DNA from: a virus
Strand: one strand, 5' to 3'
DNA length: 64,000 nucleotides
Virus record (IMG/VR): IMGVR_UViG_3300045988_176357
Span: 1-64,000 of that record
Shown piece after piece: positions 15,923-64,000 of the stretch. The notes below the pieces were generated by a model, which searched no databases, was not told the origin of the DNA, and saw only the letters and a program-made list of their open reading frames with translations. Positions within the stretch are counted from its first letter, which is position 1; each line of letters begins with the position of its first letter. The position numbers and the translations under genes are program-made.

Positions 15923-16232
15923 TCTTTTTATGTATTCATGTCAGTGCATTTTACAGAGTGCATTGAGATGACTACATAATGTAGTCAACTTAAAACGAAA
16001 GGAGATTCATATGAACCAGAAAACAAACCAGGATCAGGTTGTGTATTGCCTGATGAGGAAAAATCTCGATACACGAGAGACCGATATCCGTATGGTTGTC
16101 GGTACACGCAAAGCCGCCGATAAATGGCTTCAACGCCAGGCGGAGCCGCCATATGCTATCGAGGATCGACAGAACAGACAGGTAATCTGCAGAGGTTTCC
16201 TGTATTACATGGAACAGAGAAAGGTACGATAA

Positions 16233-16604: not shown

Positions 16605-16682
16605 GGGACCGTAGCTTAGTCGGTTAGCAGCTGCTGACTCATACTCAGCCGGCCGCAGGTTCGAGCCCTGCCGGTCCCACCA
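16605..16682 (+). tRNA. tRNA-Met (anticodon CAT; elongator Met or Ile-lysidine type)
   Basis: Cloverleaf: acceptor GGGACCG/CGGTCCC, D-arm GCTT..AGC, anticodon stem GCTGA/TCAGC with loop CTCATAC, T-arm GCAGG TTCGAGC CCTGC. Encoded CCA. G1-C72 argues against an initiator. Confidence 0.85.
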
Positions 16683-23974: not shown

Positions 23975-24208
23975 AGGCAGGGCTGTGAGCCATAGGTGAA
24001 CTAGCAGGACAAGAGCCCGTTCGGCGACGACTGGCTGTAGGGACCTGCGGACAAGAACTGTTCCACATACTTCGCAACATACTGGAATCCGCAGGACGAC
24101 TGCAGCGGCAACACATAGAACCCGCCGCACACCACCGGCTGCACCAAATGGGACAGGCTCGGTCCGTTCAACTTCTCTCAGCTGAGTTCCCTCGGTCTGA
24201 TACCCGAC

Positions 24209-27200: not shown

Positions 27201-28543
27201 TTAAGCCTTCCAGCTGCGACCCCTTCTATTACATTCACACAGAGATCCACTGCAAGGGCTAGGATATAGTGCCGCCTACGTGGTGTCCTCCTAACCAGCG
27301 GGTCAACTGGGATGTGTGCAGATGCAGAATCAAGGTTCTCAAGATAGGACCGATAAGAGGCAGGCTGCATTCATACGGCAGCTCATCCTAGTGGGCGTAT
27401 CTGCCGTGCAAGGACTATGCTCCCGGATTCAGTACAGCCAGAATAGATATACTTATAGGAGACAGCGTTGACGACAAGAGTCTCCGTGTTTCTTACTATA
27501 AAGGCGTGGCAAAGGCTGCCAACTATGAGTATGACTGCACAAAGATGGATTGTCCGTTTACAACCCTTGACAGCTACAGAAGGCGCTCTGCAGGGAGCTA
27601 CACCTACTACACTACAGTAGGTACAGGCGGGTAGAACGAATACGGACTCCCAAATATAGTGGCGTGGAACTACAGTTGGAGCGACGGACGCACACGGTAC
27701 TTCTATTGCAACCCGCAAGCCAGGGACGCAAGCATATACGTCGGCGTGTGTCTTGACAGCATGTGCTAGGTATAGCCGACAGACGAATAGATGCTCAGCT
27801 GGATAATAGGTGACCTGTCGGATGACTCAAGACTGGTGTCCAGTTATGATTTCCACACAGTGCACTACCACCCATAGGCTTACTGCAGCGATTTCGCCAC
27901 CAAATGGTGCGGATGCAATAATGTCGGTAACCGGAGCTGTAATGCCAATATCAACTCTTTCGTGTATACTACAGAGTATAGCTCAACTCAGACGACAACA
28001 GGTAACTGTACACAGCCGATAACCCATACTATGTACGAGGGCAGCTCTACAGAAGTGGTTTAGGTGTGTAACACTAATTACAGTGCAAATAGCGTAGACG
28101 TATATTTCCGTACTACGCAATGTCTGGGTTACTAGCCCGGCAGCTGGGACTGCTATACATAGTAGGAGTGTCAGCGATATGCTCCTTCCTATATTTTCAG
28201 TTTTTATACAGGCAAGCTGTAGGGCGACACATATACATCCATGTCGTGTGCCGATGCTCTGTGCGGCGATGGAGAGTTCATAGGATACGGCTCAGCAGGC
28301 TACTACGGAACGGGAACGAATAAGCCTTACTTTAGGTTGAGTGTGAACAGATCCTCAGGCTAGAACTATGCACAGATAACTGTAGACTTATCTCAGTACT
28401 CAGTCACGCAGAGTACAGAAGACTAGAGTACCTATACATGGGAGGACGGAGACTGTACGTACACAGATACATTCCACAACACAACCAACATTTCGCAGTA
28501 GATATCAGGCACATTAACCTTTAGAGTTACTTGTTAGGAGTGA
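24209..28543 (+). CDS. giant Cys-rich protein (about 1444 codons, TAG-recoded, about 60 in-frame TAG)
   Basis: Frame 2 is open from TGA 23996-98 to TGA 28541-43 except for TAG codons. Verified codon-by-codon backward from 26165 and spot-checked forward. First ATG is at 24209. Confidence 0.6.
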
Positions 28544-35884: not shown

Positions 35885-38767
35885 ATGTTCACAAGTTACA
35901 AGCCATAGCAGTTCACCAGATACCCCACTACAATAGTTCCTGACTTAAGCGCAGGATTCGATACTCCGGAAGCCACAATATAGCTTCTTGGAGTTTCCGA
36001 CAGCGCATCCGTTACAGTCACTGCCACAGGGCCGAATACAGCCAAGAAGTTCCGGTTCAACTTCAAGCTTCCAAAGGGACATGATGGTGCCGCAGGAGGC
36101 TTTGCTTAGCCTGTGGCAACTGCGCAGCAACTTGCCTAGAACCAGTCGCCCACTGTTCAGGTTACTGCATCCGGACCATCTTCAGCTAAAGTGTTCGCTT
36201 TCGAATTCGGCATTCCAAAGGGTGCGACCGGACCTAAGGGATAGAAGGGCGATACAGGGCAGCAAGGTCCGAAGGGCGATACAGGAGATACAGGACCTCA
36301 GGGATAGACAGGCGCTACCGGAGCAACGGGTCCCGCCAATACGCTTACCATAGGCACAGTATCTTCAGGTGACACTGCCGCAGCTACCATTACCGGTACA
36401 GCTCCCAACCAGGTTCTGAATCTGACATTGCCTAAGGGTTAGCGTGGTGCCAGCTTCACTGTCGATGCTACCGGCTTATTGTCCTAGAGGCCCACGTACG
36501 ACGCACAGACCAAAGGGTTCTCGTTCCTGGCTACGGATACTGGTAACTTGTACATCAAGCAGTCGGACACATCCGGCGACTGGTCTTAGGCTATTCCTTT
36601 CAGAGGGGAAGACGGAGCTGCAGCCGGTTTCGGCATACCCGTTGCATCCGCTTCTTCATTATAGCCCGCTCAGAATCCTACTGTCACTGTAACAGCTACC
36701 GGTTAGAACACAGCAAAAGTGTTCAACTTTACATTCGGCATCCCCAAAGGCTAGAAGGGCGAAAAGGGAGATCCCGGACAGGCTGGTGCTCAGGGAGCTG
36801 ACGGTGCACAAGGCCCATAGGGACCCGCAGGTCCTGCTAACACGCTTACCATAGGCACCGTCTCTTCCGGCGGCACTGCCCAGGCTTCCATTACAGGTGA
36901 TGCGCCGAACCAGACACTCAATCTTGTACTGCCTAAAGGCGACAAGGGAGACCCGGGAGCAGACGGTGCACAAGGAGCGGACGGAATCACTCCTCATATA
37001 GACGACACCACAAAACACTGGTTCATAGGTGATACGGATACAGGTGTCAGCGCATAGGCTATTCCCGGCGTCACTACGTATCAGATTACAGAAGTCGATT
37101 CAGGCAACTATGCTACTATATACAGCAAGAATGTTCCTGTAGGGCTGAAGACAAACACAGGCACGTATTATCCTATATAGAAGAATACGGTTACTCTGAG
37201 TGACAGCAGCTGCAGGATACACCTTATACCTTATCTCAGTTACGAAGGCACTGATACATTCACTCCTCCGTGGACGTTGTATGTAACAGGTGCAGGCGCT
37301 GACGGGCAGCCAGGCAAGGACGGTGTGGCTGGCGGCTACGGCAATGTTCTCGGCGGGTTAGGTATGCGCATTGCAGCATACACCTCTGATTCAACTACAG
37401 TAACCCTTACGCTTGATGACAACTCAGATTCCACTTTCGACTGGAGTGTACTGCAGCCGTCATCAGTTGTCCGCATCAATAACACAGGCGGCGATCATCT
37501 CGTAGACAGCGACGCACAGTAGTAGCTGTACTACCTGAAGGGCTATATCAGCAGTGTCAACCAGGCAACTAAGAAAGTTGTCATCGATGGATGGTACTAC
37601 GCATAGTCTCAGTAGCGCAGAGAGATAAGTTCCAACATCAGTTCGTAGGTCCAGCAGGAACAGTCCTGGCTGTACATTACAGATGAAGCCAGACGCGATG
37701 CCGCTTTCAGTACAGGCGACAAGAACTTCGTCACAGGACACAGGGCCGTCGCAAACGGCTCATGGAACACTGTCGCAGGCGATATGGCACATGCCTCGGG
37801 AGGTCTCAACACAGTAGCAGGAGATCTCAGCCACGCTTTCGGTACAGCCAACAATGTACAAGCTGAAAGCGCTTTCGTAGCCGGTGTTGGTAACACAGTA
37901 AAAGAAACTGCAGGCCTGTCCATAGTTATTGGCGGCAGCAACGAAGTGCAGGCTTTCGGCTCCACCATTATTGGCAGCAATAATACAGGTCTTACCGGCA
38001 CGAACATGACTGCCATAGGTAACAGTAATGAAGGCTCCGGTACGCTGAGTACTGTTATCGGTAATAATAACACCATTAATGGGCAGTCAGGCAGAGTACT
38101 GGGCTTCGGCAACACCATGAACGCTCAGTTCGGTACACTGATAGGCATGCACGGAACGCTGGACAGCTATGCGTAGAACAGAGGAGCGTTCGCAGTTGCA
38201 ATAGGTTAGCTCGATCAGGCGCAGCTTCCTTTTATAGTGCGCGGATACAAAGCTGTACTGAATCCCCTGTTCAACTCAGACAGCACATCCTAGTCGCAAT
38301 TCCTTCTTCTGAACCCGAAGGACAGAACAGGCTAGCACAAGTACAACTCATAGCCTGGCTGCTCGGTGAGCTATATGGGACATCTCCTGGGCAACACATT
38401 CACTACGGACGCCACAGGTACCATAAGCCTGGATCATGACTTCTACAGCAGATGGGTGCTCACAGGAACAGGTGCCGTCACATTGCAGGCGGACAACTGG
38501 GTGGACGGAGATACAGGACACGTTGTAGTGGACACATCGAAGCAGACAATCAGCATTCCTGCTACATGGATCACAGGAGGCGCTGACATCGTGTCGACTC
38601 CTGGTATATATGTGCTGGAGCTGGTAAAAGTGAACTAGACCATATACTACAAAATAGTGTATCCTAATACAGAATCCTCAGGAAGCACCGGCACAGGGCT
38701 GGCGGTGGTCGTGAGTTCCACTCAGCCCTCGAACCCTGTAGACGGCATGATCTGGATACAGGAGTGA
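35885..38767 (+). CDS. tail fiber with collagen-like Gly-X-Y repeats, phage-fiber repeats and YadA-head-like repeats (TAG-recoded)
   Basis: Frame 2 is open from TGA 35867-69 to TGA 38765-67. RBS gagg before the ATG. GPKGQKGDTGQQGPKGDTGDTGPQG..; repeated ANTLTIGTVSSGDTA..APNQ.LNL.LPKG modules. Contains track ORFs 37277, 37784 and 38366. Confidence 0.7.
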
Positions 38768-39678: not shown

Positions 39679-40740
39679 ATGAACATAAGTACTTAGAACC
39701 TTATTGATCTCGCTGGATCTGTACAGCTTAAGCCAGGGCAGAGAATGGTGCGTGTATCAGGCAACACATGGATGCCTATTGGCGTCGGCGGCAACTTCAT
39801 GCCTGGAGGAACAAGCGGCACCTCGGCAGAGTATTACAAGTGCGCCAGCGTTGCGGAGCCAGGCACCTTATCGGTCAATATACCGAACAATGCAGAACTT
39901 TCCGGGGTATATACTTACAATTCGTCAAATGGCAGATATGTAAATACAAATGGTGCATTCTTTTTGCATGACGGAAATTACTGGGTGCTGGTAGGTACCA
40001 ACGGATACTATTACTGTCAGAGCGATGAAATAGCATCTGATACTACTCCTGCTGACGCCACAGGATGGAAGCTGTCAAGTGGTTCAATGGATGCTATAGA
40101 TATGACTGTGACTATACCGAAGACATGGAGCGGCTACAAGGCGGTATTCGACTCAACGGCTGGAACGTGGAGCTTCGAGAGCGATGCCACAGAGGGGCTG
40201 ACATATACCAGCGTCACGCCGATCGTCGGCGGAATCTACAGTGCGGATGCCTTGGTGATTGTGTCATTGCTTTATACGGGCACGCCAACGCTGACCAGTC
40301 CTACCGGCATGCCCAGCGAGAGCTCCGACGAGTGGGAAATCAGTGCCAGCAGTTTCTACAGTGATAACTCTGCTCCGTGGAAAGCCTTCGACGGGATAAC
40401 AGGTAGCTCTTCTGGATGGACAGGAGCATCAAATTCTTCGTGGTGGCTTCAGTGGCAAAATAAGACGAAACAAGTGCTTGTGCAGAAGCTCAGATTTCAG
40501 GGTACAGCTTCCGGTGATATCGCACAGCAGGCTATCACCTCTTTCATCCTTCAGGGCTCTGATGACGGCAGCACATGGACAGACTTGTATACTGCGTCAG
40601 GCTTGACATGGACTACTGGATATGAGTGGAAAGAGTTCACGTTCTCGAACAGCAAGAGCTACTACTACCATAGGTTGGCAAACATCACCGTAGCTGCAAA
40701 CTATCCTACCATTATTGAACTTGAAACCTATGACATGTGA
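39679..40740 (+). CDS. receptor-binding protein with C-terminal discoidin/F5-8-type-C-like domain
   Basis: Strong RBS taggaga. One in-frame TAG. Shares SAEYYKCASV and TWSGYKAV modules with 17160..18533 but has a different C-terminal lectin-like domain. Confidence 0.65.
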
Positions 40741-44715: not shown

Positions 44716-46440
44716 ATGGCAGCGACCACTAAGAATGTATATTTGAAAAATGTAGCGGGTTAGACACTGTACCCGTATACTACCAATGTGCCGCATAAAG
44801 CTTAGTTTTCGTTTGCCGATGGCTAGCTTGCGCTTAACTTCGATAAAGTCAGAGACGGGCTCGGCCTTACAAGTGACAGTCTCAGTTTCAGTCTTCCCTA
44901 TCAGACCTTTTCACAGGTAACCGACAACCAGGTCATACTCAGCGGACTGCCTGTAGGAATCAAGACGGAGCTCGGAAACTACTATCCTGTGTAGAAGAAC
45001 TCTCTGCAGTTCACATAGACAGGAATCAGCCTGACAGTCACAAGATATCTCGCATACGACGGACTTGATACATTCTCAGGCACATGGACAGCTTACTTTG
45101 CCTGCGGTCGCGACGGACTGCAGGGACCTAAGGGATAGACAGGTGCGGCCGGGCCTGCCAATACACTTTCAATCGGAACAGTTTCTTCCGGTGACACAGC
45201 TTCAGCTACTATTACAGGTGACGCTCCCAACCAGGCACTCAATCTTGTGCTGCCTAAAGGATAGAAGGGAGATACTGGAGCAGACGGCACCAGCGGCGCG
45301 GACGGCATAACACCGCACATAGATAACACCACAAAGCACTGGTTCATAGGCGATACAGACACAGGTATACTTGCTCAGGCCGATCTCGGAGAAGCCAGGA
45401 AACAGATCACCAGTGTCGATGCACAGTTCAGAGCTTCAGTGAACAGTGCTCTTGCACCTGTAGCTATACTTACTGATCTTGGAAACTACTATCCGGTATA
45501 GAAGAACTCTGTTACTGTACAGGATAATACATATACAATTCAGCTTACCAGATACCTTGCGTACGATGGCGTCGACACTTTTACTGGCCCGTGGACAGTT
45601 TACTTCGCAGGCGGAGGCTAGACCGGACAACAGGGCATACAGGGCTAGCAAGGTCCTGCGGGCCCATCCAATACGCTCTCCATAGGTACGGTTACATCAG
45701 GCGACACAGCTTCGGCTACCATTACAGGCACATCACCTTAGCAGGTGTTGAACCTGGTGCTGCCGAAGGGGGATAAGGGAGACACAGGTCAAGCAGGTGC
45801 CGATGGAGCCTCAGCATATCAGGTATGGATCAACAACGGTAACGCAGGCACACAAACAGACTTCCTCGACTCACTTAAAGCTACAGGTTACAGACATCCG
45901 TTCACTGCTGCGGATATAGCAAATGACACGCTCACCATAACGACAACAGGCACTCCTGTATCCATATCCGATCAGGATTCCATTACGTATCCTCTGCAGT
46001 TCGCTTCATACAGAGTGACAGGCACGCAAGTTACGATTGACATGGCTGTGAACTTGAGCGCAATAGGCAAGGGCGTAAGCGGAACATGGTATGTCAACTT
46101 TGCTGCTGGCGGGCCTGGAGCATAGCCTTCCGGCACATATATTACAGAGCAGACCGGCGCTTCATTCACACCTGCTGCAAACAATATCTATAAGCACACT
46201 ATTGTGTCAGGGTAGAGCATCTCTTTCACTTCTACCAACATGAGTGCAGGAAGATGTTCTACATTTGAGCTGTGGCTTATAATGGGATCTGCAGTTGTCA
46301 GCTTCTCTTTGCCTGATACTCTTACATGGGTAGGAGCCGCGCCCAGCTTCGACAGTGCCAATACGCTGTATGCACTTGTAATAAGATGGGACGGATAGAG
46401 CTACATAGCCAATCTGGCATATACAAAGACTGTCGCATAA
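44716..46440 (+). CDS. second collagen-like / phage-fiber-repeat tail fiber (TAG-recoded)
   Basis: RBS taggag. Frame 1 runs to TAA 46438-40. Contains track ORF 45745..46125. Shares a near-identical repeat module with 35885..38767. Confidence 0.65.
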
Positions 46441-51150: not shown

Positions 51151-53025
51151 ATGTATTAGAAGAGATATACAAGATCACTTGCAAACCCTTTCAGCACACG
51201 GTCCAACAGGTTCTTTCCAAAGACCATCAAGTAGTGCTTCGACTGGGCATAGTACATGCATGACAGATTTCCTGTCATAGGTACAGCTATAAACAAGGTC
51301 GTCAGATACTTCGCTGCCGATATAACAGTAACAAGCAAATAGTCTCCCTCTTAGACTGACACAGACTCGCTCAAGCACACATAGGAGCTGCTCAAGAACA
51401 GTTACAATCTGCTGTAGCTTCTGATACGCATTGGCTAGGAGCTTGCCACAATGGGCAATGTGTTCGTATATGCGATGCCTGTGATCAACCGGACACTGTG
51501 CTGTCCTGAATGTCGTAAGTTCGTGGTAGCCATGGATAAAGTGGTACCGAAAGTAGATTTTCAGTGGGACGGATAGTGCAAAGGCGTGTGTCCTAAGTGC
51601 GGCAAAAAGGTCACTTTTCTGATGGTTGACAAAGTCACCAGTGACTAGCTCGGGCGCAAGATCAGGTTTATGATCTACTCCCCGCGAGATGTTCAGCTCA
51701 AGTTCAATTAGCTTACAGGTTAGTACACATATCTGTACAAGATGCCTTCGCACATCAAGAATGCGATCGTGTAGGGCGATCCTGTATATCTCAGAACAAC
51801 ACCCAAAGTGTTCCTCAAAGGAGCTTTCTCCTAGAAGTTCATATAGTTCCCTGTCGATAAGTTTCTGCATCTCAGGACAGACACGCTGGCTTCCATGGAC
51901 AGGTTCTATAAGGGCTGGGGCACTCCTCTGTTCCTCAGCAGCTTCAACAACATTCTCAGACTGGCATATCTTGATAAGTTCAATTAGGCGGTTGCAACCG
52001 ACTTCATTGCTCCGATAAGAATGATCAGTCCTCCGACACAGCAGCTTCTTGCCGGTCAGGACAACCTCAGGCAGCCTATCAGCGGCCACGCTGTCAAGAA
52101 CTTCATTATGGAAGCCATTAAAGGGATCAGAGAGAATCCCTCTCAGTGGGTGGTATCTCCGTTCCCGCTCAACTATCAGATGCTCGGCGGATAGGCAAAG
52201 CAGCTTGCACCTGTGTAGCTGATGAAGTGGTACTAGGACAGAATTCTGTAGGATATGGCAATTCCTCTGTAGATCAGACAGACTACATTCCAGGCAGTAG
52301 CGCCATCTATGGGTCTCAGAATGTTTTAGCGGCAGTGGATACACTTTACTTCGCATCTTGACTACGGGCTCAGATGGCTTGTAGACAGAATCTGCTAGGT
52401 GCATCTGCTTGATCAGGTGTCGGTACGCCTTGACAAGACATCGTTCGTTTAGGACGACATGCACAAACAGACCATCCTTAACATGATGGGCAGCGGACTT
52501 GTCTCTACAGACACTGTTCTGAGTACTATAGGACTCGACTTCAAGGACTAGGTCAACAAGAAACTTGAAGAACAGAACTACGAAGCAGAAGAAGCCGCAA
52601 AGAGCCAGGCGAATCAGCAGCAGATGTAGATGACTGCTTCTGTATTGCCTCCTCCCGGATCATAGGGCATTGGAGCTGCACAGCTGAACATGTAGATGGT
52701 TCAGCAGGCGAACATGCCTCAGCAAGCTATGCAGCAAGGCGCACCTATGCCAGCAGCTCCTGCAGGAGCAGGCATGCCGCCGATGCCAGCAGGTTTGCAG
52801 AACAGTCAGTCTGCAGGTGTGTAGGCGCTGTTCCAGCAGGCACAGCAGATAGCTCAGCAGATATTCGACACAGGAGTTACGCAGGGTCCTGGTGCACGCA
52901 GAGCTGCTCTTGTGCAGTTGAAGCAACAGAATCCGTAGCTCCATGCACAGGTTAAGCAGATACTGTTGAACATTGATCAGCAGACCGCCTCGCAGGCAGT
53001 AGCACAATCCAAGATGCCGCAATGA
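51151..53025 (+). CDS. large virion morphogenesis protein with CxxC..CxxC Zn-ribbon and Gln/Met-rich C-terminus (TAG-recoded); portal is one possibility
   Basis: RBS aaggag. Frame 1 is open for 625 codons and spot-checked at 3 positions. CCPECRKF..CPKCGKK. A 429-codon antisense ORF on the minus strand is judged spurious. Confidence 0.55.
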
Positions 53026-55154
53026 AGACGAAGATAAGACAGTACCTCGATAAAAGAGCTGCTTTTGACAGGGCGCTCGCCAAGTCTGCAGGCTGGTGGC
53101 AGGACCTGAAGAACTTTGGACAGGCCGTCGGGCAGAACATGGCCGATGCCAACCAGTACTATAAGAATAACAGAGCTATAGACAGGCTGCAGCAGGGCAA
53201 AGGCAATTATGGTGCTTCCGACAGAAAAGCTCTTCTCGATGTCATGCGTCGCAGACAGCAGTTTATCAGAGACCGATCCGGCATGTCCTGGAAAAGTCTC
53301 AACACAGGCCAGGCACTGAACACTGCAGGTACTACAGCGGCTGCGACTGCTGCTACTCTCGCAGGAGGAGAAGTTCTCGGGGCTGCTGCTACAGGTATCG
53401 CAACAGGTGCAAAAGCTGTCAGAGCTGCGCAGACAGCAGCTAAGGCAGCCAAAGATGCGCAGACAGCTGTCAATGCCGTCAAGCCTGCAGGAACAGTCTC
53501 CCGTATGCTACGCACAGGTACAGGGACTTTTATCAAAGACTACCTGACAGGTTAGACAATTGAAGCAGCTCCTTAGGTGTATGCTCAGACAGTCGCAAAG
53601 ATGCATCCGTAGTGGACTCCGTAGCAGCGATAGCAGTATCTCGGTAAAGCGAGACAGTGGGGGAGCACTCTGAACTCTGCGTACTGGACTGGAAGCAGTC
53701 TCAGAGCTCCCGGCAAATTTGGGAAGATACTTGGATTAGGTATGGGCGCCATGGGTCTGACCAATGCATACGCTCAGAATCAGAATCCGACAGAGTACTA
53801 CACTTTACAGGAAATACAGCAGGATCCTTCCAGACTGGACAGAATGCCACAGCTGACAGGACAGCAGCGCACTGTCATGCAAAGCTATCAGCAGTAGTTG
53901 AACAACCCGATGCAACGATTCGTTCGTCCATTCAGAACTCCTGGACAGTTCTTGTTCATACCTGGTGTAGGCTCAGTTGAAGATGTTGTTCCGTAGGGCA
54001 ATAATACTGTCGACTACGCACTTGGAAGAACACCGGATACTTATAATTTACAGCGTACACAGCAGGATCGTGCTGCAGCATACAGAACTCTGGAGTAGGA
54101 TCCGAATAACCCTACAGCTGAGCGTGTACTGGAGAATACGCCATAGTATGTGCGCCAGACAATCCGGAATAATGGCGACACGACAAAGAATACAGTGCAT
54201 GCTACAGCGTAGTAGGCATACAGATCATATTTCATGAAGCCTTAGGCGTAGCAGGATCCCGCATAGTTGCAGAGGCTTAGAATAGCCGCTCTGTAGTAGC
54301 AGCGCAATGCAGCAAGGTATGCAGCGCAAAATACAGGCTTGGTACAGGCAGGATTCGGCAAAATGATTCCTGCCTCTGTGGTGCAGCAGGGTGTTGTCGA
54401 CGCTACAAAGCAGAAGATGCAGCTCTACAAGCAGTTGTCGCAATAGAAAGATCCTGTTAAGCGTCAGCAGATACTGGAGCAGCTGCGATACGGCAACCAG
54501 CAGGGAGCCATAGGTGCATAGGCGCTGAAAGCCAAGTGGTCTCCGCAGATGCGCAATCAGGTTGTACAGCAGGTTGTTGGAGATAACGCAGATCTGACTC
54601 AGCTGCATCAGATGGTACAAGGTCAGAATGATTACAATAAATGGCTTGCGCAAAATAATCTGCAGCAAGATTCCGACCAGTATACCGCTTAGATAGCTGC
54701 AGGTATGAAAGACAGATATGTGCAGAACATCAAGAAGCAGATAGCTTCCACTGACGATCCTATAGGATACGCATAGAAGCTTCTTATGTTGAAGCAGCAC
54801 GCAGGATAGGACACTGCTGAACTTGGCAAGTAGCTGTACGACCAGATATATCCCAGAGTGAAGTAGCAGATATGGAAAGATCCTATCAATAACCTGCCGC
54901 AGGCTATTAAGCTGTGGGGAATGTCTAAGGGTTACTCCAAGTAGTTCCAGAACTTGTTCGGATCCAAGTCGGGTCTGTGGGGAGCTGTCGGCCTTGGTGC
55001 AGGTCTTCTCGTAGGGCTTCCTTTACTTTACAGCCTATTTAGCGGACGCGCATAGACACCGCAGGTTAACTATAAGGATGCCAGGTTCCAGCAGATGCTT
55101 GACTAGGCTGTGCAGATGAATATGCGCAGACAACAGGAAGGACATTACGCGTGA
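53022..55154 (+). CDS. Gln-rich internal virion / tape-measure-like protein (TAG-recoded)
   Basis: ATGA overlap with the upstream stop. Frame 0 is open for 711 codons to TGA 55152-54. Ala/Gln-rich with a C-terminal TM segment. Confidence 0.5.
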
Positions 55155-55947
55155 ACTAGCTGCCGAAATCAAATCCAATATCCAAGCTTGTATAGAGCTA
55201 CCAGAGTAAGGTGAAGAGTCCCTTAGGGCAGTCTTTACTGCTCGCAGGTATTGGATTGCCTGCTGCTTATATGCTTAAGCGCCCTGTTAACAAGCTGTTG
55301 AAACATTTGGGAAGAGATCCCAGAATTAACGCGGCTCTTGGAACACGTCCTGCGTAGATGGAATAGGGCCTGGACTAGATGTAGAACTCATGGGTCGGCA
55401 AGCATGGTCTGCCTCTGATGCTTGGTCTGACTCCAGCTGCTATTGCTCTGGCTATGAATGTCACTCCAGGGCAGCCTTATTCCGGACTCACTTCATGGGC
55501 TGTAAAGAAGAAAGCCGCACTCAAGAAGATTGCTTCTTTATGGTAGGCTGACGGATATCAACCGCAGATAGACTTCTCGCAGACACTGAATCCTAATACA
55601 GTTGTCAGCATGATACAGCATAATCCATACCTGAAGGATTCACCGTATTAGCGTAATCTTGGTACATCTATTATCACAGCAGCTAAAGCATACGGTAACT
55701 AGACGACGCTTGGCAGCATTTATGACAGCGCTGTCAACAAGTTCGATACCAAGCTCAGATTTGAGGGTGTTACAGATAAAGCTGTCAAGAGTCTTGTTCA
55801 GGGTTCTCTGGCAGGTATGTTTACAGATGTGGTCGGTTCCGTGATGGGGCTGCCTTAGCCTGTAAGAGGTCAGGTTGCCAATACTGCCGGATTTGCACAG
55901 GCTCTGTACTCGATACTGAATTAATGTATACGTAATAAAGGGATACA

Positions 55948-56247
55948 ATGAAATACTCTGATGTTTATAGACAGATGAACAAGGAAGCAGGACTTGGGTA
56001 GGCTCTGGCAAACGGAGCATATCTGATCGCGGCTGTGACTATGCTGACTCCTGCTGTTGGCGGCGCCGCTGCCGGATATGCAGCAGGCAAACTTACGACA
56101 CCTGGCGTTCAGGACGTATAGAACCTGTAGAAGTAGCACAGGCTTGCCAGACTCAAAAGAGACAATGAAACACAGCGTCTTCTCTAGCAGCGTGAAGACA
56201 CCAATGCAGCCTACAGTAAGAAAGTCAAGCCGATGAGGTTTGCCTGA
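55948..56247 (+). CDS. small membrane protein (TAG-recoded)
   Basis: Frame 1. MKYSDVYRQMNKEAGLG(Q)ALANGAYLIAAVTMLTPAVGGAAAGYAAG. Confidence 0.3.
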
Positions 56248-56673
56248 TGCATAGTATCGGACCATAGGAAGCACTTCTGATGCAGCTGGACCAGGAATAG
56301 GAACCGGCGCTGACAGTCGACACTTCGCAGTCCATGTGGGACTACAGAAACAGGAATACATACAATGGAATTCCTGTCGAGCAGACTGCACAGGATCTGA
56401 AAGTCAATAATGCATAGTAGTTGTAGAGAGCTCTTCAGCTGAAGCAAGGCGTTGTCGTCTGGACAGGCTATCTGTCACCTTAGTACGACGACAAGAAATC
56501 TGTTTAGCAGTACAGAGATATCAGACAGAAGTAGGCTTAGGGTCTCATTCGTGTCTACAGCTAGGACAGACAGTTCTGCCCTCAAATCAATAAATTTCTT
56601 GTGCTTGTTACATACGCATCTCTTAGCTATTAGCTGAATCCGAGACTTGAATACCTCAAATAGGAACAGAACA

Positions 56674-57672
56674 ATGAGTGATCCGATTTTGCCGAATACC
56701 ATAACGACTGCGCCGTCTGTCAAATCCGCAGTCAACACAATAAATCCGCTTTCATTCCTGTTTTCAGGCAGAGATTACGTGCCGTCATGGTTCATAAATA
56801 TGTTCCGTGGAGCTAAGGGAAGCGAGTGGGAAACAACAGGTGCGCCTGCCAAGTCCGCACATATTGCCGCAAAGGTGCTTGCCGGAGCCGGTGCACTTGG
56901 GCTTGGAGCATGGGGAGCAAGACATCTTATGCACTCCATGAAGCTGGATGCCATAGATAACGCCAATTCAGCTGCTACTGCAGGTGGAAAGCTGTAGAAG
57001 TTGTACAAAAGACCTACAGGTGCCATGGCTGGATATACGCAGGCGGAACAGCGCAAAGCGAAGCAGCTGTAGGAATCTGACAGCAGAGGTGTTGAGAAGA
57101 AAGCCTTTGTAGGTAATGCTGTAAAGTATACCGATCCGTATTCGTTTGCTCTTGGTGTTGTACCTCCTGCCGCATCCTTGCTCGCTCTTGTGGCGTCCTT
57201 TAAGAATGCTGATAAATATTACGATACCAAACTGTCCAAGAAACTTGATCGGGACATTGCCAATGAATAGGCGGAGCGTGCCAGAATCTCCAAGCGCAGA
57301 ATACTTAAGGGACGCGGAGTTCAGGACCTGATTGAGCAGGAAGCCCCTGTGACTAAGACAGCTTCCGAAAAGCAGGGTGTGTCAGGGCCTGTGGTAAGCG
57401 CACTTGGCGGAGCTGTTGCTCTGCTTGCTGCCGCTTCATTTGTAGGCGGGTTCAAGTATGCTCGGAGAAATGATCCGCAGACAGTCAAGTTCAAGGCTTA
57501 CAAAAAGGGCATATAGGCATATAATAAAGCAAGAATAGCCTAGGAGAACGTCGAGACAAAGCCACTCGATCCCAGGCTTATAGAGCTTTTCAATGCCAAC
57601 ATCAACAATAAGAAGCGCCCGCAGGAAATGACGCCTGTTAACAGCACTTCCTACAGAGATGTGTTGATGTAA
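56674..57672 (+). CDS. hypothetical virion protein (TAG-recoded)
   Basis: RBS aggaac. Frame 1 runs to TAA 57670-72. Contains track ORF 56647..56997. Confidence 0.45.
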
Positions 57673-57684
57673 TAAGGAGCCGAT

Positions 57685-58416
57685 ATGCCGTAGTTGCAGG
57701 GAACAGTCAATAATATCCAGCGACAGAAGATGCAGTTCATCTCCGATGTGCTGGATCCTACACCAACTGTCATGTACAGAGCTGATGACTATAAGACTCA
57801 GCGCAAGTTGATCTTTGAGCGTGTTAAGAATGCTGTTCAGAAGAGATTCCCTCTGTACAATGATAAATATGTACTGTAGGTGTAGAACCTCGACTACGCA
57901 GATCCATAGGAATTCTCTTATGCTGACCAGAAGAAAGCTGTTCTGTAGGGGACGTCTGTAGGCAGAAGACTTCGTGGCAGCTATGTGCTCAGAGATGCTG
58001 CAACTAATCAGGTGGTCTCAAGAACGAAGCCGCAGACGCTCCTGAAAGTTCCATACATGACAGATCGAGGCACGTTCATCAACTCAGGTCATGAGTACAC
58101 ATTCAATAACATCATGCGTCTGTAGCCTGGTGTGTATACACGCAAGAACAACGATGACGACATTTCAGCACAGTTCAATGTGAAGAAAGGCACTGGAGCT
58201 GGATTCAGCATGACATTTGTTCCCAGCAAAGGTGTCTTCCAGATAAGCAGAGGCACTGCAAACGCTCCTGCATATACTGTGCTGAAAGACTTAGGTGTTA
58301 CAGATTAGCAGATGAAACAGGCGTGGGGCGACTAGCTGTACAATACCAATAAGTAGTACGGTACCGGGTAGAAGGCACGCATAGCTTCCAACAGAATCTA
58401 CAATTACAACTCATGA
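57685..58416 (+). CDS. RNA polymerase beta subunit N-terminal fragment (split RpoB homolog, TAG-recoded)
   Basis: KVPYMTDRGTFINSGHEYTFNNIMRLQPGVYTR aligns to bacterial RpoB [57 protein letters not shown] aligns to [26 protein letters not shown]. Confidence 0.65.
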
Positions 58417-59249
58417 GCGTTGCGTCCGATATAGCTAAAGGTATAGTAACCAGATTACCATAGCACTGGGACTGGAAACGCGCTCTTACATATGCCGGTG
58501 TGACAGGAGGCGGAGCTGCGGGTTTGTCTTTGCTGATAAGCAAGCTGCGCAAACACGATAAAAGAAAACGCACACTCAATGCTATTGTATCAGGTTTGTC
58601 AGGAGCTCTCGGCGGTACTGCGCTTTATACAGGTCTTCAGAACTTCATATAGCTAACAGGAGGGCTTCCTCTTGGAGGTTAGAACCAGCTGCCTGCAGTC
58701 GATACCGACGACAAGGCACCAGGTAAACACTATATAGTGTATATAGGTGGAATGAACACTGCTCCCAGGTATGCCAAGAAGCTGATACCGGGTGCAAATA
58801 TGGCTGTGCTTGACTGGGGATAGCAGGACAAAGCTGTTAACTTTATAAACAGTATCAGAGCTAAAGATAAGGTAACACTTATAGGTCACTCTGCAGGAGG
58901 AGGTACAGCAATAGCTGTAGCCGACAAAGTCAATAGACCTGTAGACAAATTGATAACACTCGATCCTGTAGTGTTAAATCCTGTAAAGCGTCTGTTGTAG
59001 ATGTTCAGAGTAAGAAAGCCTAAATCAGCTGTTACAGCATAGAACTACATACCTTAGGACTACAAACTTAAGGACAGCAGTAACGGATTCCTGTCAAAAA
59101 ATAATCCTATATTGCTTAGACAGGTTCCAGGAATGAATAACACAGTTATTCCGAATTAGGCACATGGGTTGTGGTCTACCGGCTACAGAGCTACGCCTTA
59201 GTCAGCATAGACCTTATTGAATGTAAAAAAGAAGGTAGTATCGATATGA
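58413..59249 (+). CDS. alpha/beta-hydrolase (GHSAGG nucleophile elbow) with N-terminal TM helix (TAG-recoded)
   Basis: ATGA overlap with the upstream stop. Frame 0 was traced by coordinates. VTLIGHSAGGGTAIAVA. Confidence 0.5.
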
Positions 59250-59674
59250 AAAAGTACGCACAAATATGTAAGGACGCCGGTGTTGCTTCGTAGGTTGCAG
59301 GTAATGCCATACAAGCCGCCCTGCCTCATGCAATTGTCAACTCCAATGTACATTAGGACATTAAACTGGGCGCTCTCGGAGCTTTCGGTGCAGCACAGCT
59401 TGTAGCAGCGGCAGCAGCTCTGGCGACGCCTACGAGATCAAACAAGCAACAGCTTAAAGCCGGTATCTCTCCATGGCATACTCTTGGTAATCTGCTAGTA
59501 CCTGGAATGGCTTCTTACAATTTGTACAAGAGGTACGGTAATGCTATGGCTCAGGAATCAGCAGCCGCAAAAGAACGCGACATCCAAGGTGCGCTCAAGG
59601 CGACCAAAGACAAAGACGCAAATGTGAGGTAGGCAGCAAAAGCCTATCTTAAGATGCGTAAAGCGAAGGCATAA
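59246..59674 (+). CDS. small Ala-rich membrane protein (TAG-recoded)
   Basis: Frame 2 runs to TAA 59672-74. Confidence 0.35.
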
Positions 59675-59939
59675 GCAGAGGACACAATGACGTACAAGCA
59701 AGCATACGCTAAAGTGGCTTAGCTCAAGTCTCTTTAGGAGCAGAACAAGTAGAACACTCCTATGACCTACATGCAGGCGCACAGAAGAATGCAGCGCAGC
59801 ATCAACGACATGCTCAAACCTCACGAACCCGATATTGCACAGGCAAAACCTGACAACAAGCTTACAGTAGATGCTCCTGAAGGATCGCCTTCCTAGACAC
59901 TTGGCAATGTAAAGTAAGCTTACACACAGCACATTCAAT

Positions 59940-59990
59940 GGGCCGCTTCCCTTCAAAACTGGCAAGGGAGGTGGCCCATTTGTATTATAT
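59940..59990 (+). terminator. rho-independent terminator
   Basis: gggccgcttccctt..aagggaggtggccc followed by a T-rich tract. Confidence 0.65.
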
Positions 59991-60041
59991 GCACAAACAG
60001 ACACGGGGTCTGCAAAACAAACGAACTGAAAGGTATTGAAA

Positions 60042-60404
60042 ATGCAAATCAAATCCTTGGATGGAGTCATGCACGAAGTCTCACCTGCTTAGGTATAGCG
60101 GGTGTACAAGATGCTTCCGGCGCATGCCTCAAAGCAAATGAAGGTCTAGGAGGATGTAGAGCTCAATTAGGTGCTCGAAACGTTCGACTGGAAGTCGCAA
60201 AAGTACATGTAGAAGGCGGGACATAACATCAAGCGTATCGTGTAGCTGTAGGCATTGCCGACTACCGAAGATGATGTGAAAAGCGCACTGGCGCATGTTC
60301 TGTGTCACGGATGCCCTGAACGGATAGCGGATGCTCTGTATGAGTCCATCTAGTTCTAGGTATCAAGATTTATGAAACATCTCGTCGACGAATACATGGA
60401 GTAA
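60042..60404 (+). CDS. hypothetical protein (TAG-recoded)
   Basis: Frame 0 runs from ATG 60042 to TAA 60402-04. Confidence 0.35.
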
Positions 60405-60954
60405 AACGAATATGGATATAATGGGATTGCTGGTGCCTATTCTTTCAGGCTCACCTGAGATAAAGGGCAAGTTGGAATCGGTGTTCGGACAGCCTGTCGA
60501 TCACATAAGCAAATGTGTGAGTCAGTTCATGGACGGCATAAAGAATGGTCCGGGTTTAGTGGATAAGTAGCTGCAGAAACAGCAGAGATTTATGCACATT
60601 TACCAGAGCGGACTGCGCATGGGCTTCCAGGATTACTAGGCGTAGATAGCCGCAGCCGATTGCGCTGGTTATCCCGTTATAGACGTTGCAAACTCCTTCG
60701 CTTAGCGGCGAGGATGGAACTGCACAATATAGGAAATATAGCAGCTCCATGACAAAATCATGCCCAGATTCATGTAGATGGGCAGGAAAACCGGACTGTT
60801 TCAAACTGAAAAGAAAACCTAGACAGCTCCAAAAGGGATCCCGAGCGTGCAGGTTACAGGAAGTGCGAAATAGCCTCCGTGGAGAACGGCGGAACAGCCA
60901 AAAGGTGCACCTGTTCCACCTGTAAAATAACAGCACCTGAAAATGAGGTAAGAA

Positions 60955-61497
60955 ATGAGTTACAATGATACGAATTGCGGTCACACCGGATGGGGTGTGG
61001 GTCTGTCTGCCATAATCGGCGGCGCTCTTGGATACTGGGCAGGTCGTTCCAGCGGTCCCGGAGGGTTTGGAGGGTACGGATGTTACGGCTTCCCGGCAGG
61101 GTATGCTGTGGCTGCTTAGAACGGTCACTGTTCGACATGCTTCGAGCAGGGTGTTGAGTCCGGTCAGACTCTCGCAGGTCTGAACTACATCGGCCAGCAG
61201 GTTGCTTCTAACAGCAGAGACATCGCCAACTCGATGACAGCTCTCAGCAACCAGCTCAACAATCAGACAGCTGCTATCCAGGCGCGTTTCGATGCGCTCA
61301 ATCAGCAGAAGATCGCGGATCAGGCTGCCTAGATCGCGGCTCTGCGTACGCAGAACGTTGTCGGTCTCAATGCTGCTGCTACCAACATGCAGCTCACGAG
61401 TCTGAACGATAAGGTCAGCTCTATCATAGCTGGCTGCGCAGTCAGGTCTGTCAATGCATGTCCGACGAACAACTGCTGCGGCTGCTCTAATCAGTGA
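60955..61497 (+). CDS. Gly-rich N-terminus plus coiled-coil protein (TAG-recoded)
   Basis: Frame 1. MSYNDTNCGHTGWGVGLSAIIGGALGYWAG..; coiled coil with NQLNNQTAAIQARFDALNQQK. Confidence 0.4.
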
Positions 61498-61892
61498 TAA
61501 CCGATGAGGGAGGTTTCCGCCTCCCTCGCAACTAAGATGGAGGTTCACAATGGCATGCTGCGCATTGGTAAAGAACTGCGGACGCTGGCAAGTGTATGCC
61601 ACTACAAAGGCTACAGGAGCCCAATATTACAGGATTTATGCTTGCCTCTGCAATCTGCAGAGATGCCCGCAAATAACCTGCGATATAGTGTCAGCCGGAG
61701 CCTCCGACTCCAGTGAAGCCACGTTGGTTACAAACTGCGGAGCGATTATCCCGCTGGTCAAGAGCTCTACACTGGCCCCGGTAACTGTGGGCTAGCTTCC
61801 GGCCGGAACCAGTATGGACGTTGTCGTGAAGACAGTCAACCAGATCCCGCAAGGTGTGGTTATTGGAGTCTGAGGTAATCTCAGGTCCGCAA

Positions 61893-61927
61893 AGCCCTCT
61901 TACTGCAACAGGTAAGGGGGCTTTTTT
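61893..61927 (+). terminator. rho-independent terminator
   Basis: gccctcttactgcaacaggtaagggggc followed by a T-run. Confidence 0.6.
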
Positions 61928-61987
61928 GTGCTCTGCTCTTACGCGCTAAGCTTTTTGATATACTTCAGCTACAGAAAGGAAACCTTC

Positions 61988-64000
61988 ATGGCTCCATTTA
62001 ATACCTCCGGCAAAGCTCCCAAGAACGCGCAAGACTGGGTCAGGTAGCTTCGCTTTTCCAACGATGTAAACATGAGCACTGTCGGTGTGGATACAGACAG
62101 AGTCACTCCTTAGCTCATGCTCGCTTCCAGCAAGAAACTTCTCGGAATCTCCAGAGGCTAGCAGGAAGGAGACGCGAAGGACTCGCTCAGATACCAGAAA
62201 GTGTTCGGACCTGTAGAGTACTTTGCGTAGAGAATACAGAAGGACGGAGGCAGCGTAGCCAGATCAATGCTGTGGAAGGCTACCAACAGAGGCAACGTCG
62301 ACTTCATCAACTCAGGCAGTCTGTAGCCGCACGTCAGTGCAGTGTTCCACCAGAGTAATCTTTCGCAGTTCGTCGACAACAGCACACCTCTCGACGGCAT
62401 CGACAACTCCATGAAGGTCACACGTGTCGGTGAGGGCGGTATATCCAGCGACTAGGTTGCGCCTATTGAGATGCGTCTTGTGCAGCCTTCTTACTATGGG
62501 TACATCGGTTCGGCTCGTACTGCATAGCGCTGTTACAGAGCCGATACACTCATTCTGACCAAGAAGGGCTGGAAGCCTGTAACACAGATGTCCATGGACG
62601 ACGAGTTCGCCACACTCATAGACGGCAGACCTGCATGGCACAGACCTATAGCGCTCAACAGCTACGACCATGATGGACCTATGTACTGTTACAACGGTCG
62701 CTACATCAAGTTCTCCGTCACTCCCAGTCACAGGATGTATGTAGCACAGGATAAAGACTACAGCATACAGTACATCGATCAGGTCTTCGGCAATACAGTG
62801 AAGGTTCTGTGCGCTGTCGACAAGGCGTCCAAAGTCGACTAGAAGCAGAGGTGGTTCTACTTGCCGCAGGTATAGTCCCCAGCAGCCAACTGCAAGAACA
62901 TATAGAAAGTGGACATTGTCGACTTCGCATAGTTCATGGGCTGGTATCTCAGCTAGGGCAGCCACGACTTACGCACAACCAAGCGAGGACAGAATTACAG
63001 AGTCCGTATTACACAGTCTCCTACAAAGAATCCTGAGCACTATGCACAGGTGCTGTAGCTTATGGACAGACTTCCGTTCACCTACAGCATAGACAGCAGA
63101 GACGGATCAGCCAATATTACAATCCTTCGGAAGCAGCTATACATGTATGTCAAACAGTTCGGACACAGTGAAGACAAGTTCATCCCTGAGTGGATCTTCC
63201 ATGCTCCAACTGCAGCGAGATGGGCATTCGTCGATGCGATCCTTAAGGGTGACGGCAAAGGCGCCAGAGATCTGTGCACCATTTCAAGCAGACTCGCAAA
63301 TGACTTTGCAAGGCTCATGTTCGAGCTCGGACAGTCTGTCAATATCATAAAAGAGCTGCAGAAATACGAGCACACAAAACGTCAGGTCAACCCCTAGGAA
63401 GATTTCCTGTACACAGTTACCTGGCACAGAACATTCTAGTCCACACTGCAAGGGCTTGGATAGAGATCAGGATATTATGTATAGGAATATAAGGGCAAGG
63501 TCTACTGTCCCACTGTCCCGGGAGGTCTCGTATATGTGAAGCTTCCGGGAGCTGCAAAAGGTTTCTGGTGCGGCAACAGCCCCGGCATCACAGGTTACAT
63601 GACAAAGAACGTCATGAAGGGTACAGACGGCAAGCTGTACCAGAACATGCTCAATGTTCGTACAGGTAAGATAGAGCCTGTTGACTCACAGAAAGCTGCA
63701 GCCTCGGTAGTCACAACCAACTAGTACATGAACACGGACGACGAATACGTGTACGCAATGGGCGGTCCCAGAGGCGTACGCATTGTCAAGAAGTCCGATA
63801 TCGACTACATACTTCCTCACTCGGATGATGCGTACTCAATGGCAGCCAACTACGTGCCCATGTATTCAGGCATCAAGTCGATGCGTCTGCTGATGGGCTG
63901 TTTGCATCCGGATACACCTGTGCTTGTTGTAGACAAAGACGGATACACAGACATCATCCCTGCAAAGAGAGTGGGACATGTCGGCACCATATATCTTGCA
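61988..64000 (+). CDS. RNA polymerase beta subunit C-terminal-half fragment containing an intein (partial, continues past the window; TAG-recoded)
   Basis: SNLSQFVDNSTPLDGIDNSMKVTRVGEGGIS..RLVQPSYYGYI aligns to RpoB [39 protein letters not shown]. Downstream ANYVPMYSGIKSMRLLMGCLHPDTPV aligns to [27 protein letters not shown]. Frame 2 contains track ORFs 62588, 63062 and 63536. Confidence 0.7.
62531..63577 (+). mobile_element. intein with LAGLIDADG homing-endonuclease domain inside the RpoB-like gene
   Basis: Begins at Cys (CYRADTLILTKKGWKPV..), the Hint N-terminal block. Internal WAFVDAILKGDG is a LAGLIDADG motif. Ends ..GFWCGN followed by Ser. 349 codons, in frame. Confidence 0.6.

Follow-up and report, generated by a model that had tools for sequence, protein, structure and literature searches.

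The RNA polymerase genes of the window

A stretch of viral DNA of 64,000 nucleotides (IMG/VR virus record IMGVR_UViG_3300045988_176357, positions 1 to 64,000), referred to hereafter as the window, carries at its right-hand end two genes whose products resemble parts of the beta subunit of multisubunit RNA polymerase (RNAP). The first gene (57685–58416, + strand) encodes 243 amino acids (aa) related to the N-terminal module of beta and contains 10 in-frame TAG codons. The second begins at 61988 (+) and runs out of the window; 671 of its codons, 18 of them TAG, lie inside. This part consists of a first extein of 181 aa (62530 being its last nucleotide), a 349-codon insert with 10 TAG codons (62531–63577), a second extein of 107 aa that extends from SPGITGY... 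to ..SMRLLMG (63578–63898), and the first 34 codons (CLHPDTPVLVVDKDG...) of another insert (63899–64000), which was recognized by reconstruction from a related strain and is truncated where the window stops. Both genes need read-through of TAG. A preliminary description, made from the letters alone, had assigned them to the N-terminal and central regions of bacterial RpoB and had placed both in a TAG-recoded late module, as is indeed the case.

The assignment of the first gene was borne out. When compared with the PDB by phmmer, its product matched residues ~100–220 of many bacterial RpoBs, including the ..MTDRGTFI.. motif (best E = 4e-4). It also aligned with residues 28–216 of the fusion protein of Vibrio phage D69 (E = 1e-23), and with the N-terminus of a single open reading frame (ORF) in a distant relative, L005 (40.7% identity). 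The gene is preceded by a ribosome-binding site, AAGGAG, and a Shine–Dalgarno-like motif is found ahead of the second gene too. The N-terminal ~240 residues of beta are thus encoded as a separate polypeptide by gene 57685–58416, 3.6 kb upstream of the rest, in agreement with the earlier proposal that beta is encoded in separated pieces with unrelated genes between them. The intervening late genes (58413–61873, +) are all TAG-recoded and unrelated to RNAP; they encode an alpha/beta-hydrolase (58413–59249; Abhydrolase_1, 6.5e-6) and four or five small proteins with no Pfam or PHROGs matches.

With its 349-codon insert removed, the windowed product of the second gene matched RpoB over E. coli residues 429–569 (E = 4e-7, phmmer against the PDB), through an 11-residue block, GPGGL and HPTHYGR. 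Extein 1 carries the motifs LSQFVDNSTPL, GEGG and PSYYGY of the beta fork/Rif region, and both the N-terminal and the fork/Rif blocks of beta therefore lie inside the window. Matches of the window-only part to Pfam (Rpb2_3, E = 0.21) and PHROGs (phrog_24349, 5.6e-5) were marginal, and significance was for this reason drawn from the PDB comparisons and from a full-length reconstruction. In the PDB, significant matches were obtained for both RpoB fragments (E = 4e-4 and 4e-7) and for the insert (E = 1e-6).

The reconstruction was based on locus L003, a strain 97.1% identical to window positions 53732–63997 that reaches 10 kb further. Database searches with the exteins also returned P0008, a fragment on a 50-kb Logan contig with 100% identity to the query, and P0002, a 75% relative on a 61-kb ENA contig, while a scan of IMG/VR using the 288-aa extein and an exact 32-mer gave no matches. 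In L003 the second gene is an ORF of 2461 codons that contains 52 TAG codons and no TAA or TGA, and that extends about 5.4 kb past the window end. Large inserts were located, by motif, at residues 182–530, 638–970 and 1826–2373, leaving a spliced product of 1231 aa. Pfam matches of this product comprised Rpb2_6 (1.2e-46), the double-psi beta-barrel region of beta with its lysine pair, Rpb1_2 (5.9e-24), the beta-prime barrel with its (N)ADFDGD-type loop, and Rpb1_1 (7e-9). In the PDB, spliced residues 31–803 matched bacterial beta from ~370 to its C-terminus (4e-47) and residues 834–1231 matched beta-prime 141–566 (2e-48). Residues 845–1223 also matched residues 172–554 of cyanobacterial gamma (chain 8h3v_E), a natural N-terminal half of beta-prime. 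The catalytic motifs of L003 are intact, namely GDKMSGFEGSKG (the GDKxxxxxGxKG lysine pair), NRAPSLH and DYDGD; the Mg-binding loop reads MDYDGD in L003 and LDADGD in L002, a 75%-identical relative. The L003 chain terminates ~85 residues past DYDGD and, by inspection, lacks the beta-prime Zn-ribbon segment (..IFGPDGMNWGYIQL..).

Since these Pfam and PDB matches follow one another along the spliced product, the gene encodes the rest of beta and the N-terminal half of beta-prime (beta'N) in one ORF, as a precursor of ~2460 residues in which the remainder of beta is fused directly to beta'N, the latter extending through the DYDGD loop. The fusion can be followed in L003 and in L002, and is inferred for the window genome past position 64000. 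The central-RpoB assignment made for the second gene in the preliminary description holds for the windowed part, but the gene goes on to the rest of beta and to beta'N. Similarly, of a further conserved beta block listed in that description, only the first half (..SMRLLMG) lies in the window; the intein that follows at 63899 had been missed.

The beta N-terminus is not contiguous with the fusion chain in the window, L002, L003 or L004. In these three relatives it forms an ORF of its own, 3.6–7.4 kb upstream of the fusion gene, and the block between the two genes measures 3.6 kb in the window and 6.5–7.4 kb in L002 and L004. The spliced product has at least 315 homologues at E <= 1e-20, on contigs of up to 165–205 kb, and PF00562 and PF00623 occurred in one chain in 120/120 of the homologues listed (lengths 1231–2136 aa). 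The N-terminal extension was absent from 99 of these 120, the closer ones (at least 50% identity; a few are truncated), and present in 21, the more distant ones. This distribution indicates that the fission is an inherited trait of a sub-clade and no artefact; because it is common to ~99 listed homologues that span 50–100% identity, it is taken to be old and maintained.

Inteins in the fusion gene

The insert at 62531–63577 had been described as a 349-codon intein that starts at Cys, contains a LAGLIDADG motif and ends in ..WCGN before a Ser, and this was confirmed. It begins with Cys1 (62531) and contains block B, VTPSHRM (62717–62737), with its TxxH signature, two LAGLIDADG motifs, FMGWYLS(TAG)GS and WAFVDAILKGDG (62933–62953 and 63221–63256), block F, KVYCPTVPGG (63497–63526), and the terminal ..FWCGN (63563–63577), after which the +1 Ser opens extein 2. 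Its layout is that of a Hint domain with an inserted LAGLIDADG endonuclease, and it matched the endonuclease domain of PI-PkoII (E = 1e-6). Exteins 1 and 2 rejoin onto the contiguous '..ETPEG PNIG..' region of RpoB. The density of TAG is alike in the intein (10/349) and the exteins (8/288).

Intein 1 was aligned with 16 allelic or near-allelic elements from relatives (n = 17; site a). Cys1 and the block-B His are invariant in 17/17, the block-B Thr is at least 90% conserved, and the consensus reads CxxxxTEVxTxxGW for block A, TPxH for block B and GKVYCxTVPGG for block F, with ..FWxGN/S at the end (slash, junction with the extein). Blocks A, B, F and G, which the preliminary description had left for checking, are thus all present. 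Mini-inteins of 142–152 aa at the same site lack exactly the central LAGLIDADG module. The fold was tested on an allelic proxy, the P0019 intein, which occupies the same site and is 56% identical. Its predicted structure (pLDDT 87.5) retrieved TliVMA, PhoVMA, PI-PkoII, PI-PfuI and PI-SceI in Foldseek (E = 1e-14 to 1e-8); its centre resembled I-DmoI and its termini a Hedgehog Hint domain and a split intein. On these features the 349-codon insert is assigned to the class 1 inteins, with a nested LAGLIDADG endonuclease and with splicing and homing predicted.

One intein had been claimed for the second gene, and that one is real, but L003 holds three, two of which touch the window. Intein 2 begins at 63899 (CLHPDTPVLVV...), directly after ..SMRLLMG; in L003 it comprises 333 aa, gives a Pfam match to Intein_splicing (9e-8) and ends in ..GIITHN, followed by SKYGTQAVPLQ. 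Intein 3 lies outside the window (L003 13736–15379, residues 1826–2373); it is ~548 aa long, contains LAGLIDADG and directly follows DYDGD. Elements at this position (site g) start with Ser or Thr and end in ..VVQD/T in at least seven diverged versions, and the predicted structure is that of an intein with LAGLIDADG (PI-PfuI, 3e-16). In the structural models, the intein fold was confirmed for the site-a and site-g elements. A LAGLIDADG_3 Pfam match was also found among the inteins of the reconstructed fusion ORFs. L002 has no site-g intein and has an extra mini-intein of 139 aa at site e ('GGSG.TG/C...N/SKRLG'; PT-HINT, 4e-11). A different element, starting 'DFDGN/C..', was seen at the same beta-prime loop in other family members.

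Inserts of at least 100 aa in the 120 listed homologues were projected onto the spliced product and fell into seven clusters, all in conserved motifs. Site a (~174–199, the '..ETPEG' region, occupied by window intein 1) held an insert in 22/120 and was empty in 98/120. Site b (~262–301, RLLMG/S, window intein 2) was filled in 82/120, site c (~540–558, GDKMSGF/EGSKG) in 6/120, site d (~588–597, DPLGIISR/TN) in 12/120 and site e (~682–696, GGEHG/SKK) in 24/120. A single homologue (1/120) had an insert at site f (1014), and site g (~1118–1153, directly after DFDGD) was occupied in 23/120. The gene is an exceptional intein hotspot, with seven sites among the 120 listed homologues, all at catalytic motifs, and up to three inteins per gene. 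The coexistence of full-length, mini and empty alleles makes it a natural system for the study of intein homing, decay and atypical splicing chemistry.

Interruption of this gene was also observed in the Vibrio phages D181 and D148 (OZ196140, OZ196545; ~144.8–149.6 kb), where the match to the spliced product is in two pieces over four coding sequences annotated 'hypothetical' and one annotated 'homing endonuclease'. The RNAP gene is likewise interrupted by a mobile element there, either intron-like or a free-standing homing endonuclease gene.

Reading of TAG in the late block

Read in the standard code, the region from 55 to 64 kb is fragmented, with short ORFs by the dozen. When TAG is translated as an amino acid, long and co-directional ORFs run from ~22.3 kb through the window end, starting with ORF 22382–28543 (+; 2054 codons, 97 in-frame TAG, 4.7%). 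In-frame TAG is absent from the left 22 kb. Because TAG read-through ORFs are confined to the right of ~22.3 kb, the window divides into a standard-code early/replication block, with genes for NrdD, an NrdG-like protein, a primase, an RNA ligase and a glutamyl-tRNA synthetase (GluRS)-like enzyme, and a TAG-recoded late block, with genes for collagen-like fibres, tail proteins and the portal.

The residue inserted at TAG was assessed in a deep alignment of the product of the first RNAP gene and the spliced product (45 TAG) with 18 standard-code, intein-free homologues, in which 44 TAG columns were usable. The composition of the homologues at these columns (E 0.34, D 0.16, K 0.08) was close to that at genuine Glu codons (E 0.38, D 0.15, K 0.07) and differed from that at genuine Gln codons (Q 0.20, K 0.13, E 0.12). 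At the RNAP TAG columns E had the highest likelihood, by 168 nats relative to D and by 178 nats relative to Q, and among the 13 well-conserved columns the residue was Glu in 10 and Gln in none. The TAG at 62525–62527 (+), two codons before intein 1, falls in column 423, which is E in 18/18 homologues and corresponds to the E of the beta '..ETPEG' motif. The portal gene, with 30 TAG, gave a similar picture (E 0.40, D 0.14, Q 0.09, with six all-Glu columns).

Codon usage pointed in the same direction. GAA and GAG together account for 5.52% of codons in early genes and 2.33% in late genes, and addition of TAG (3.38%) to the late value gives 5.71%; CAA and CAG (3.19% versus 4.94%) are not depleted in late genes. 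Between ~70%-identical strains, the codons opposite TAG specify Glu 33 times, Asp 21 times and Gln 19 times, the Gln codons being almost all CAG, which is one transition from TAG. Pfam scores did not discriminate, the summed bits being 281.4, 281.8, 275.8 and 281.7 with TAG read as Q, E, D or K, respectively.

Taken together, these comparisons make it quite probable that in-frame TAG stands for Glu and not for Gln. It is likely, too, that the late block is written in an undescribed code in which TAG means glutamate, read by an as yet unseen tRNA(CUA) that the phage's own truncated GluRS-like enzyme would charge. This enzyme is a class I aminoacyl-tRNA synthetase of 356 aa, encoded in the standard code within the early block (19635–20705, – strand). 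It matched Pfam tRNA-synt_1c (2e-41), with a weak match to the GluRS-type Anticodon_2 domain, and in NCBIfam it scored best as gltX_bact (9e-60), followed by GluQRS (2e-31) and GlnRS (only 2.5e-8); it is a candidate for the enzyme that charges the TAG-decoding tRNA. No suppressor tRNA was detected by ARAGORN in the window and nine loci or by Rfam in the window, the only tRNA being a tRNA-Met at 16605–16682.

In the searchable literature, phage TAG is treated as Gln or as unknown, and no report of TAG read as Glu in phages was found there. Database translations of the human-gut lineage to which the window belongs (the gut clade hereafter) put Q at TAG positions. If TAG is Glu, translation with table 15 mis-assigns about 3.4% of late-protein residues as Q in databases; if this is confirmed, the code would be a new natural one, and the proteins of the gut clade are systematically mistranslated in public databases. 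Maturation of the RNAP would then require Glu at ~45 TAG codons, among them the one beside intein 1 for a universally conserved Glu of the catalytic region, in addition to three splicing events, and production of the polymerase would be tightly gated to late infection.

Several other features of the surrounding sequence were recorded. The source phage is ~180 kb and from the human gut, the contigs that carry the window genes being from human-gut metagenomes, one of them of 181,445 bp. The recoded block opens with the gene at 22382–28543, whose product has a very high content of Cys, Trp, Tyr and Pro. Tail-fibre proteins with collagen-like G-x-y repeats and repeated modules are encoded at 35885–38767 and 44716–46440 (+), and a discoidin/F5/8-type-C-like tail protein at 39679–40740, along with several further fibre-like genes, which together suggest a complex host-recognition apparatus. 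A gene for the major capsid protein was not recognized in the window, and no PHROG matches, crAss-related ones included, were obtained for the portal and the other late proteins. A group I catalytic intron (9121–9417, +; Rfam 54 bits, E = 6e-11) overlaps the 3' end of an RNA-ligase-like ORF (8002–9159) and is followed by an IS605 OrfB/TnpB-like gene (9572–10702), at a position that is without a TnpB-like gene in L008–L010. In several relatives (L008, L009 and L010, in sequence to the left of window position 1), an HNH_3 endonuclease ORF divides the nrdD gene (293–1711 in the window), and in L007 this gene forms two ORFs without an HNH_3 endonuclease between them; this splitting is another insertion of a mobile element in an essential phage gene. 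Just downstream of the fusion gene, L003 (15822–17983) encodes a lytic transglycosylase of the SLT type and a ligase- or capping-enzyme-like protein in which a LigD 3'-phosphoesterase domain (LigD_N) is combined with a KADGTG nucleotidyltransferase motif, and the corresponding block of L005 encodes a 1048-aa SET-domain/acetyltransferase protein. The SLT, LigD/KADGTG and SET-domain proteins are possible co-packaged effector enzymes.

Affiliation, probable virion delivery and comparison with known systems

The closest described relatives of the fusion protein are found in two groups of cultured phages. Gp206 of Salmonella phage Arash (OQ632216; 1525 aa) matched the spliced product at 9e-141 over 97% of its length with 28% identity, and homologues of 1527 aa, annotated 'hypothetical', are present in Vibrio phages D69, D181 and D148 (D69: 4e-127, 97% coverage). 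The D69 chain carries Rpb2_6, Rpb1_1 and Rpb1_2 together. In Arash and D69 the gene order is portal, a small ORF and the fusion gene, followed 1–5 kb on by a separate gene of ~606 aa for the C-terminal half of beta-prime (beta'C; Rpb1_5, 5e-21); Arash gp204, directly upstream of gp206, is annotated as the portal. The product of the window gene at 51151–53025 (+) is a homologue of the D69 portal-like protein (E = 6e-60), itself a weak match to SPP1_portal, and the portal-to-RNAP arrangement is therefore conserved. In the window lineage, as in Arash and D69, a single chain unites the beta and beta-prime barrels and its gene lies shortly downstream of the portal in the late block. By these sequence features the enzyme is placed in a large, barely described family of phages of ~165–205 kb with a portal-adjacent beta–beta'N fusion, to which the gut clade adds the N-terminal fission and heavy intein invasion.

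Proteomics of sucrose-gradient-purified Arash particles yielded 3516 spectra for Gp206, more than for any other protein, the major capsid protein included, and the same particles contained Gp216 (1210 spectra) and the sigma factor Gp10 (467) (PMC10585845). The neighbours of the fusion gene (portal, SLT transglycosylase, ligase-like protein) are typical of internal or ejected virion proteins. The proteome of Arash and the position of the gene suggest, by analogy, that the gut-clade enzyme is packaged into the capsid, and the earlier proposal of a virion-packaged RNAP gains support from these proteomic data on the orthologue in a cultured phage, namely Gp206/Gp216 of Arash (PMC10585845). The best explanation, to which we give a probability of roughly 0.78, is a bacterial-type two-barrel RNAP of the Arash/D69 lineage that is split, fused, intein-bearing and virion-packaged. 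Translation of the precursor would take place late and include read-through of TAG; the inteins would excise themselves and the exteins be ligated into a beta–beta'N chain of ~1231 residues, which would assemble with the 243-residue beta-N piece and a separately encoded beta'C. The assembled RNAP would then be packaged, delivered with the DNA, and would transcribe the standard-code early genes. The inteins would be selfish homing elements that persist because imprecise loss at their sites would kill the polymerase.

Several observations weigh against this explanation. Everything beyond position 64000 is deduced from the 97%-identical L003 and not from the window genome, and splicing of the precursor is inferred from sequence. 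The penultimate residue of intein 1 is Gly instead of His (..GN), and the termini of intein 3 are atypical (Ser/Thr1 ... VQD/Thr). A penultimate His is a frequent but not obligatory feature of inteins, and inteins ending in Asp or Gln were reportedly shown to splice by Amitai and colleagues in 2004. In L002 the fusion gene is frameshifted inside intein 1 (overlapping ORFs 10001–10939 and 10936–16206), which may reflect either faulty assembly or genuine decay. The N-terminal half of beta-prime is accounted for by the fusion, but beta'C, with the bridge helix and trigger loop, was not found in the accessible sequence: phmmer and a two-sequence hidden Markov model applied to all TAG-read-through ORFs of the window and L001–L005, with Pfam on the L005 neighbours, failed to detect it in the 64-kb window or, in four relatives, in the 10 kb to either side of the fusion gene. 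An Arash and D69 profile found 512 relatives among 5.8 billion proteins, the best 120 of which were all Arash/D69-like and none from the gut clade; matches in a scan of IMG/VR were likewise all Arash-like. Completeness of the enzyme in the gut clade is thus unproven. Finally, the Arash orthologue is only 28% identical to the window protein, and as many as 116 Arash proteins, ribonucleotide reductases included, were called 'virion' or 'structural', so that carry-over of abundant intracellular proteins is possible, as the authors themselves point out (PMC10585845).

If the Arash signal were such carry-over, the same enzyme could be made late and act within the cell, for instance in late transcription. 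The presence of ribonucleotide reductase subunits, RNA ligases and helicases among the 116 particle proteins, a caution raised in the original report (PMC10585845), is in line with this, and a TAG-recoded, late-expressed gene could equally encode a late transcriptase. However, Gp206 is the single most-detected Arash protein, exceeding even the major capsid protein, and the gene is located between the portal and putative ejection proteins of the SLT/ligase type in every lineage examined. Moreover, an enzyme made after TAG decoding has started cannot begin an infection unless it is brought from the previous cycle, a constraint that packaging fits. We therefore consider a purely intracellular role unlikely.

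Much less probable still is the reading first given to these genes, namely that they belong to the phiKZ/AR9 type of jumbo-phage RNAP, with beta simply cut into separately encoded fragments. The separate gene for the beta N-terminal module is in its favour, as is the division of beta-prime roughly where the phiKZ-type enzymes and cyanobacteria divide it (PMC7824862). However, a beta–beta'N fusion, found in 120/120 listed homologues, is undescribed for phiKZ-type enzymes, which consist of 4–5 separate polypeptides (PMC7824862, PMC13282480). In tblastn, the spliced product matched Arash at 1e-141 and D69 at 1e-127, whereas AR9-like Staphylococcus phages reached only 2e-9, over part of the beta-prime barrel, and no phiKZ-like phage was matched at E <= 1e-8; bacterial beta/beta-prime scored 1e-47 to 1e-48 in the PDB comparison. 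In addition, sigma factor genes are present in Arash and D69, in contrast to phages of the phiKZ type (PMC7824862). On the grounds of sequence affinity, fusion and the sigma factors of its relatives, the enzyme was placed outside the phiKZ family, and the earlier reading of it as a phiKZ-type RNAP is not supported.

The idea that inteins, fission and frameshifts mark a polymerase in the course of loss, with non-functional products, is the least credible: three large insertions in one gene, the L002 frameshift and the site-g termini would agree with it, but the L003 frame is continuous for 2461 codons without TAA or TGA, the motifs GDKMSGFEGSKG, DYDGD and NRAPSLH are intact, the terminal residues and blocks of the inteins are conserved in both sets of diverged alleles (17 and 7), and the fission is old and maintained.

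With a packaged, bacterial-type RNAP preferred, N-terminal fission, beta–beta'N fusion and multiple inteins constitute a new architectural variant of phage multisubunit RNAP. The analysis defines the architecture of a widespread, essentially undescribed phage transcription machine (beta-N, beta–beta'N and beta'C beside the portal). This machine provides a second counterpart to the virion RNAP of phiKZ, one that is bacterial-like, probably uses sigma and is experimentally tractable through Arash and D69. Its points of fission and fusion show where beta and beta-prime tolerate cutting and joining.

Both kinds of rearrangement have cellular precedents. The rpoB-rpoC fusion of Helicobacter and Wolbachia shows that cells can accommodate a beta C-terminus joined to the N-terminus of beta-prime. 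The phage chain ends near the end of gamma, the rpoC1 product of the cyanobacterial and plastid split of beta-prime into gamma and beta-prime (rpoC2). The phage enzyme differs from these in that the two rearrangements are combined, the beta N-terminus is detached as well and the beta-prime Zn-ribbon is missing.

Intein 1 resembles known class 1 inteins in its Hint domain with nested LAGLIDADG, Cys1, block-B TxxH, terminal Asn, +1 Ser and insertion in one of the most conserved motifs of an essential enzyme. It differs from them in its host gene, a phage beta–beta-prime gene, in having Gly for the penultimate His, and in the TAG sense codons within it. Inteins in RNAP genes have been described from eukaryotes, archaea and giant viruses (Goodwin et al. 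2006, PMC1635734); for the multisubunit RNAP genes of phages, no such report was found in the searchable literature.

Among phage enzymes, the phiKZ/AR9 RNAPs are likewise two-barrel polymerases with N- and C-terminal halves of beta-prime and a separate beta N-module, one version of which is packaged and injected (PMC7824862, PMC13282480). They differ in having no beta–beta-prime fusion and no sigma factor, and in being far more divergent from bacterial RNAP; no inteins are reported for them in the cited literature (PMC7824862, PMC13282480). In the crAss-like virion RNAP (phi14:2 gp66), both barrels also lie in one virion-delivered chain, which is reported to be unrecognizably divergent from cellular beta/beta-prime (PMC7886860), whereas the window-type RNAP scores 1e-48 against the cellular subunits. 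The zeta crAss-like phages share with the gut clade the human-gut habitat, late genes recoded at TAG/TGA, a high density of inteins and introns, and genomes of similar size (145–192 kb). Identity with them was considered and is not supported, since they are reported to carry the divergent crAss-type RNAP and no crAss-related PHROG matches were obtained here. The mReC lineage (multimeric-RNAP-encoding Caudovirales; Weinheimer & Aylward 2020) is described as having separate beta and beta-prime genes outside the cellular clades and a T4-like capsid (PF07068), and the paper makes no mention of fusions, inteins or virion location.

The nearest counterparts remain Arash and D69, in which one polypeptide similarly comprises beta and the N-terminal half of beta-prime and the genome is ~180 kb. 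Their product was published as 'RNAP subunit beta' for Arash Gp206 and as 'hypothetical' for D69, the fusion being unremarked in both, and a 2025 ISME J paper on large vibrio phages makes no mention of D69 or of RNAP. In these two phages the beta N-terminus is part of the same ORF, inteins are absent, the code is standard and beta'C is encoded 1–5 kb downstream, whereas in the gut clade the N-terminus has its own gene, up to three inteins interrupt the fusion, TAG is read as sense and no beta'C gene lies close by.

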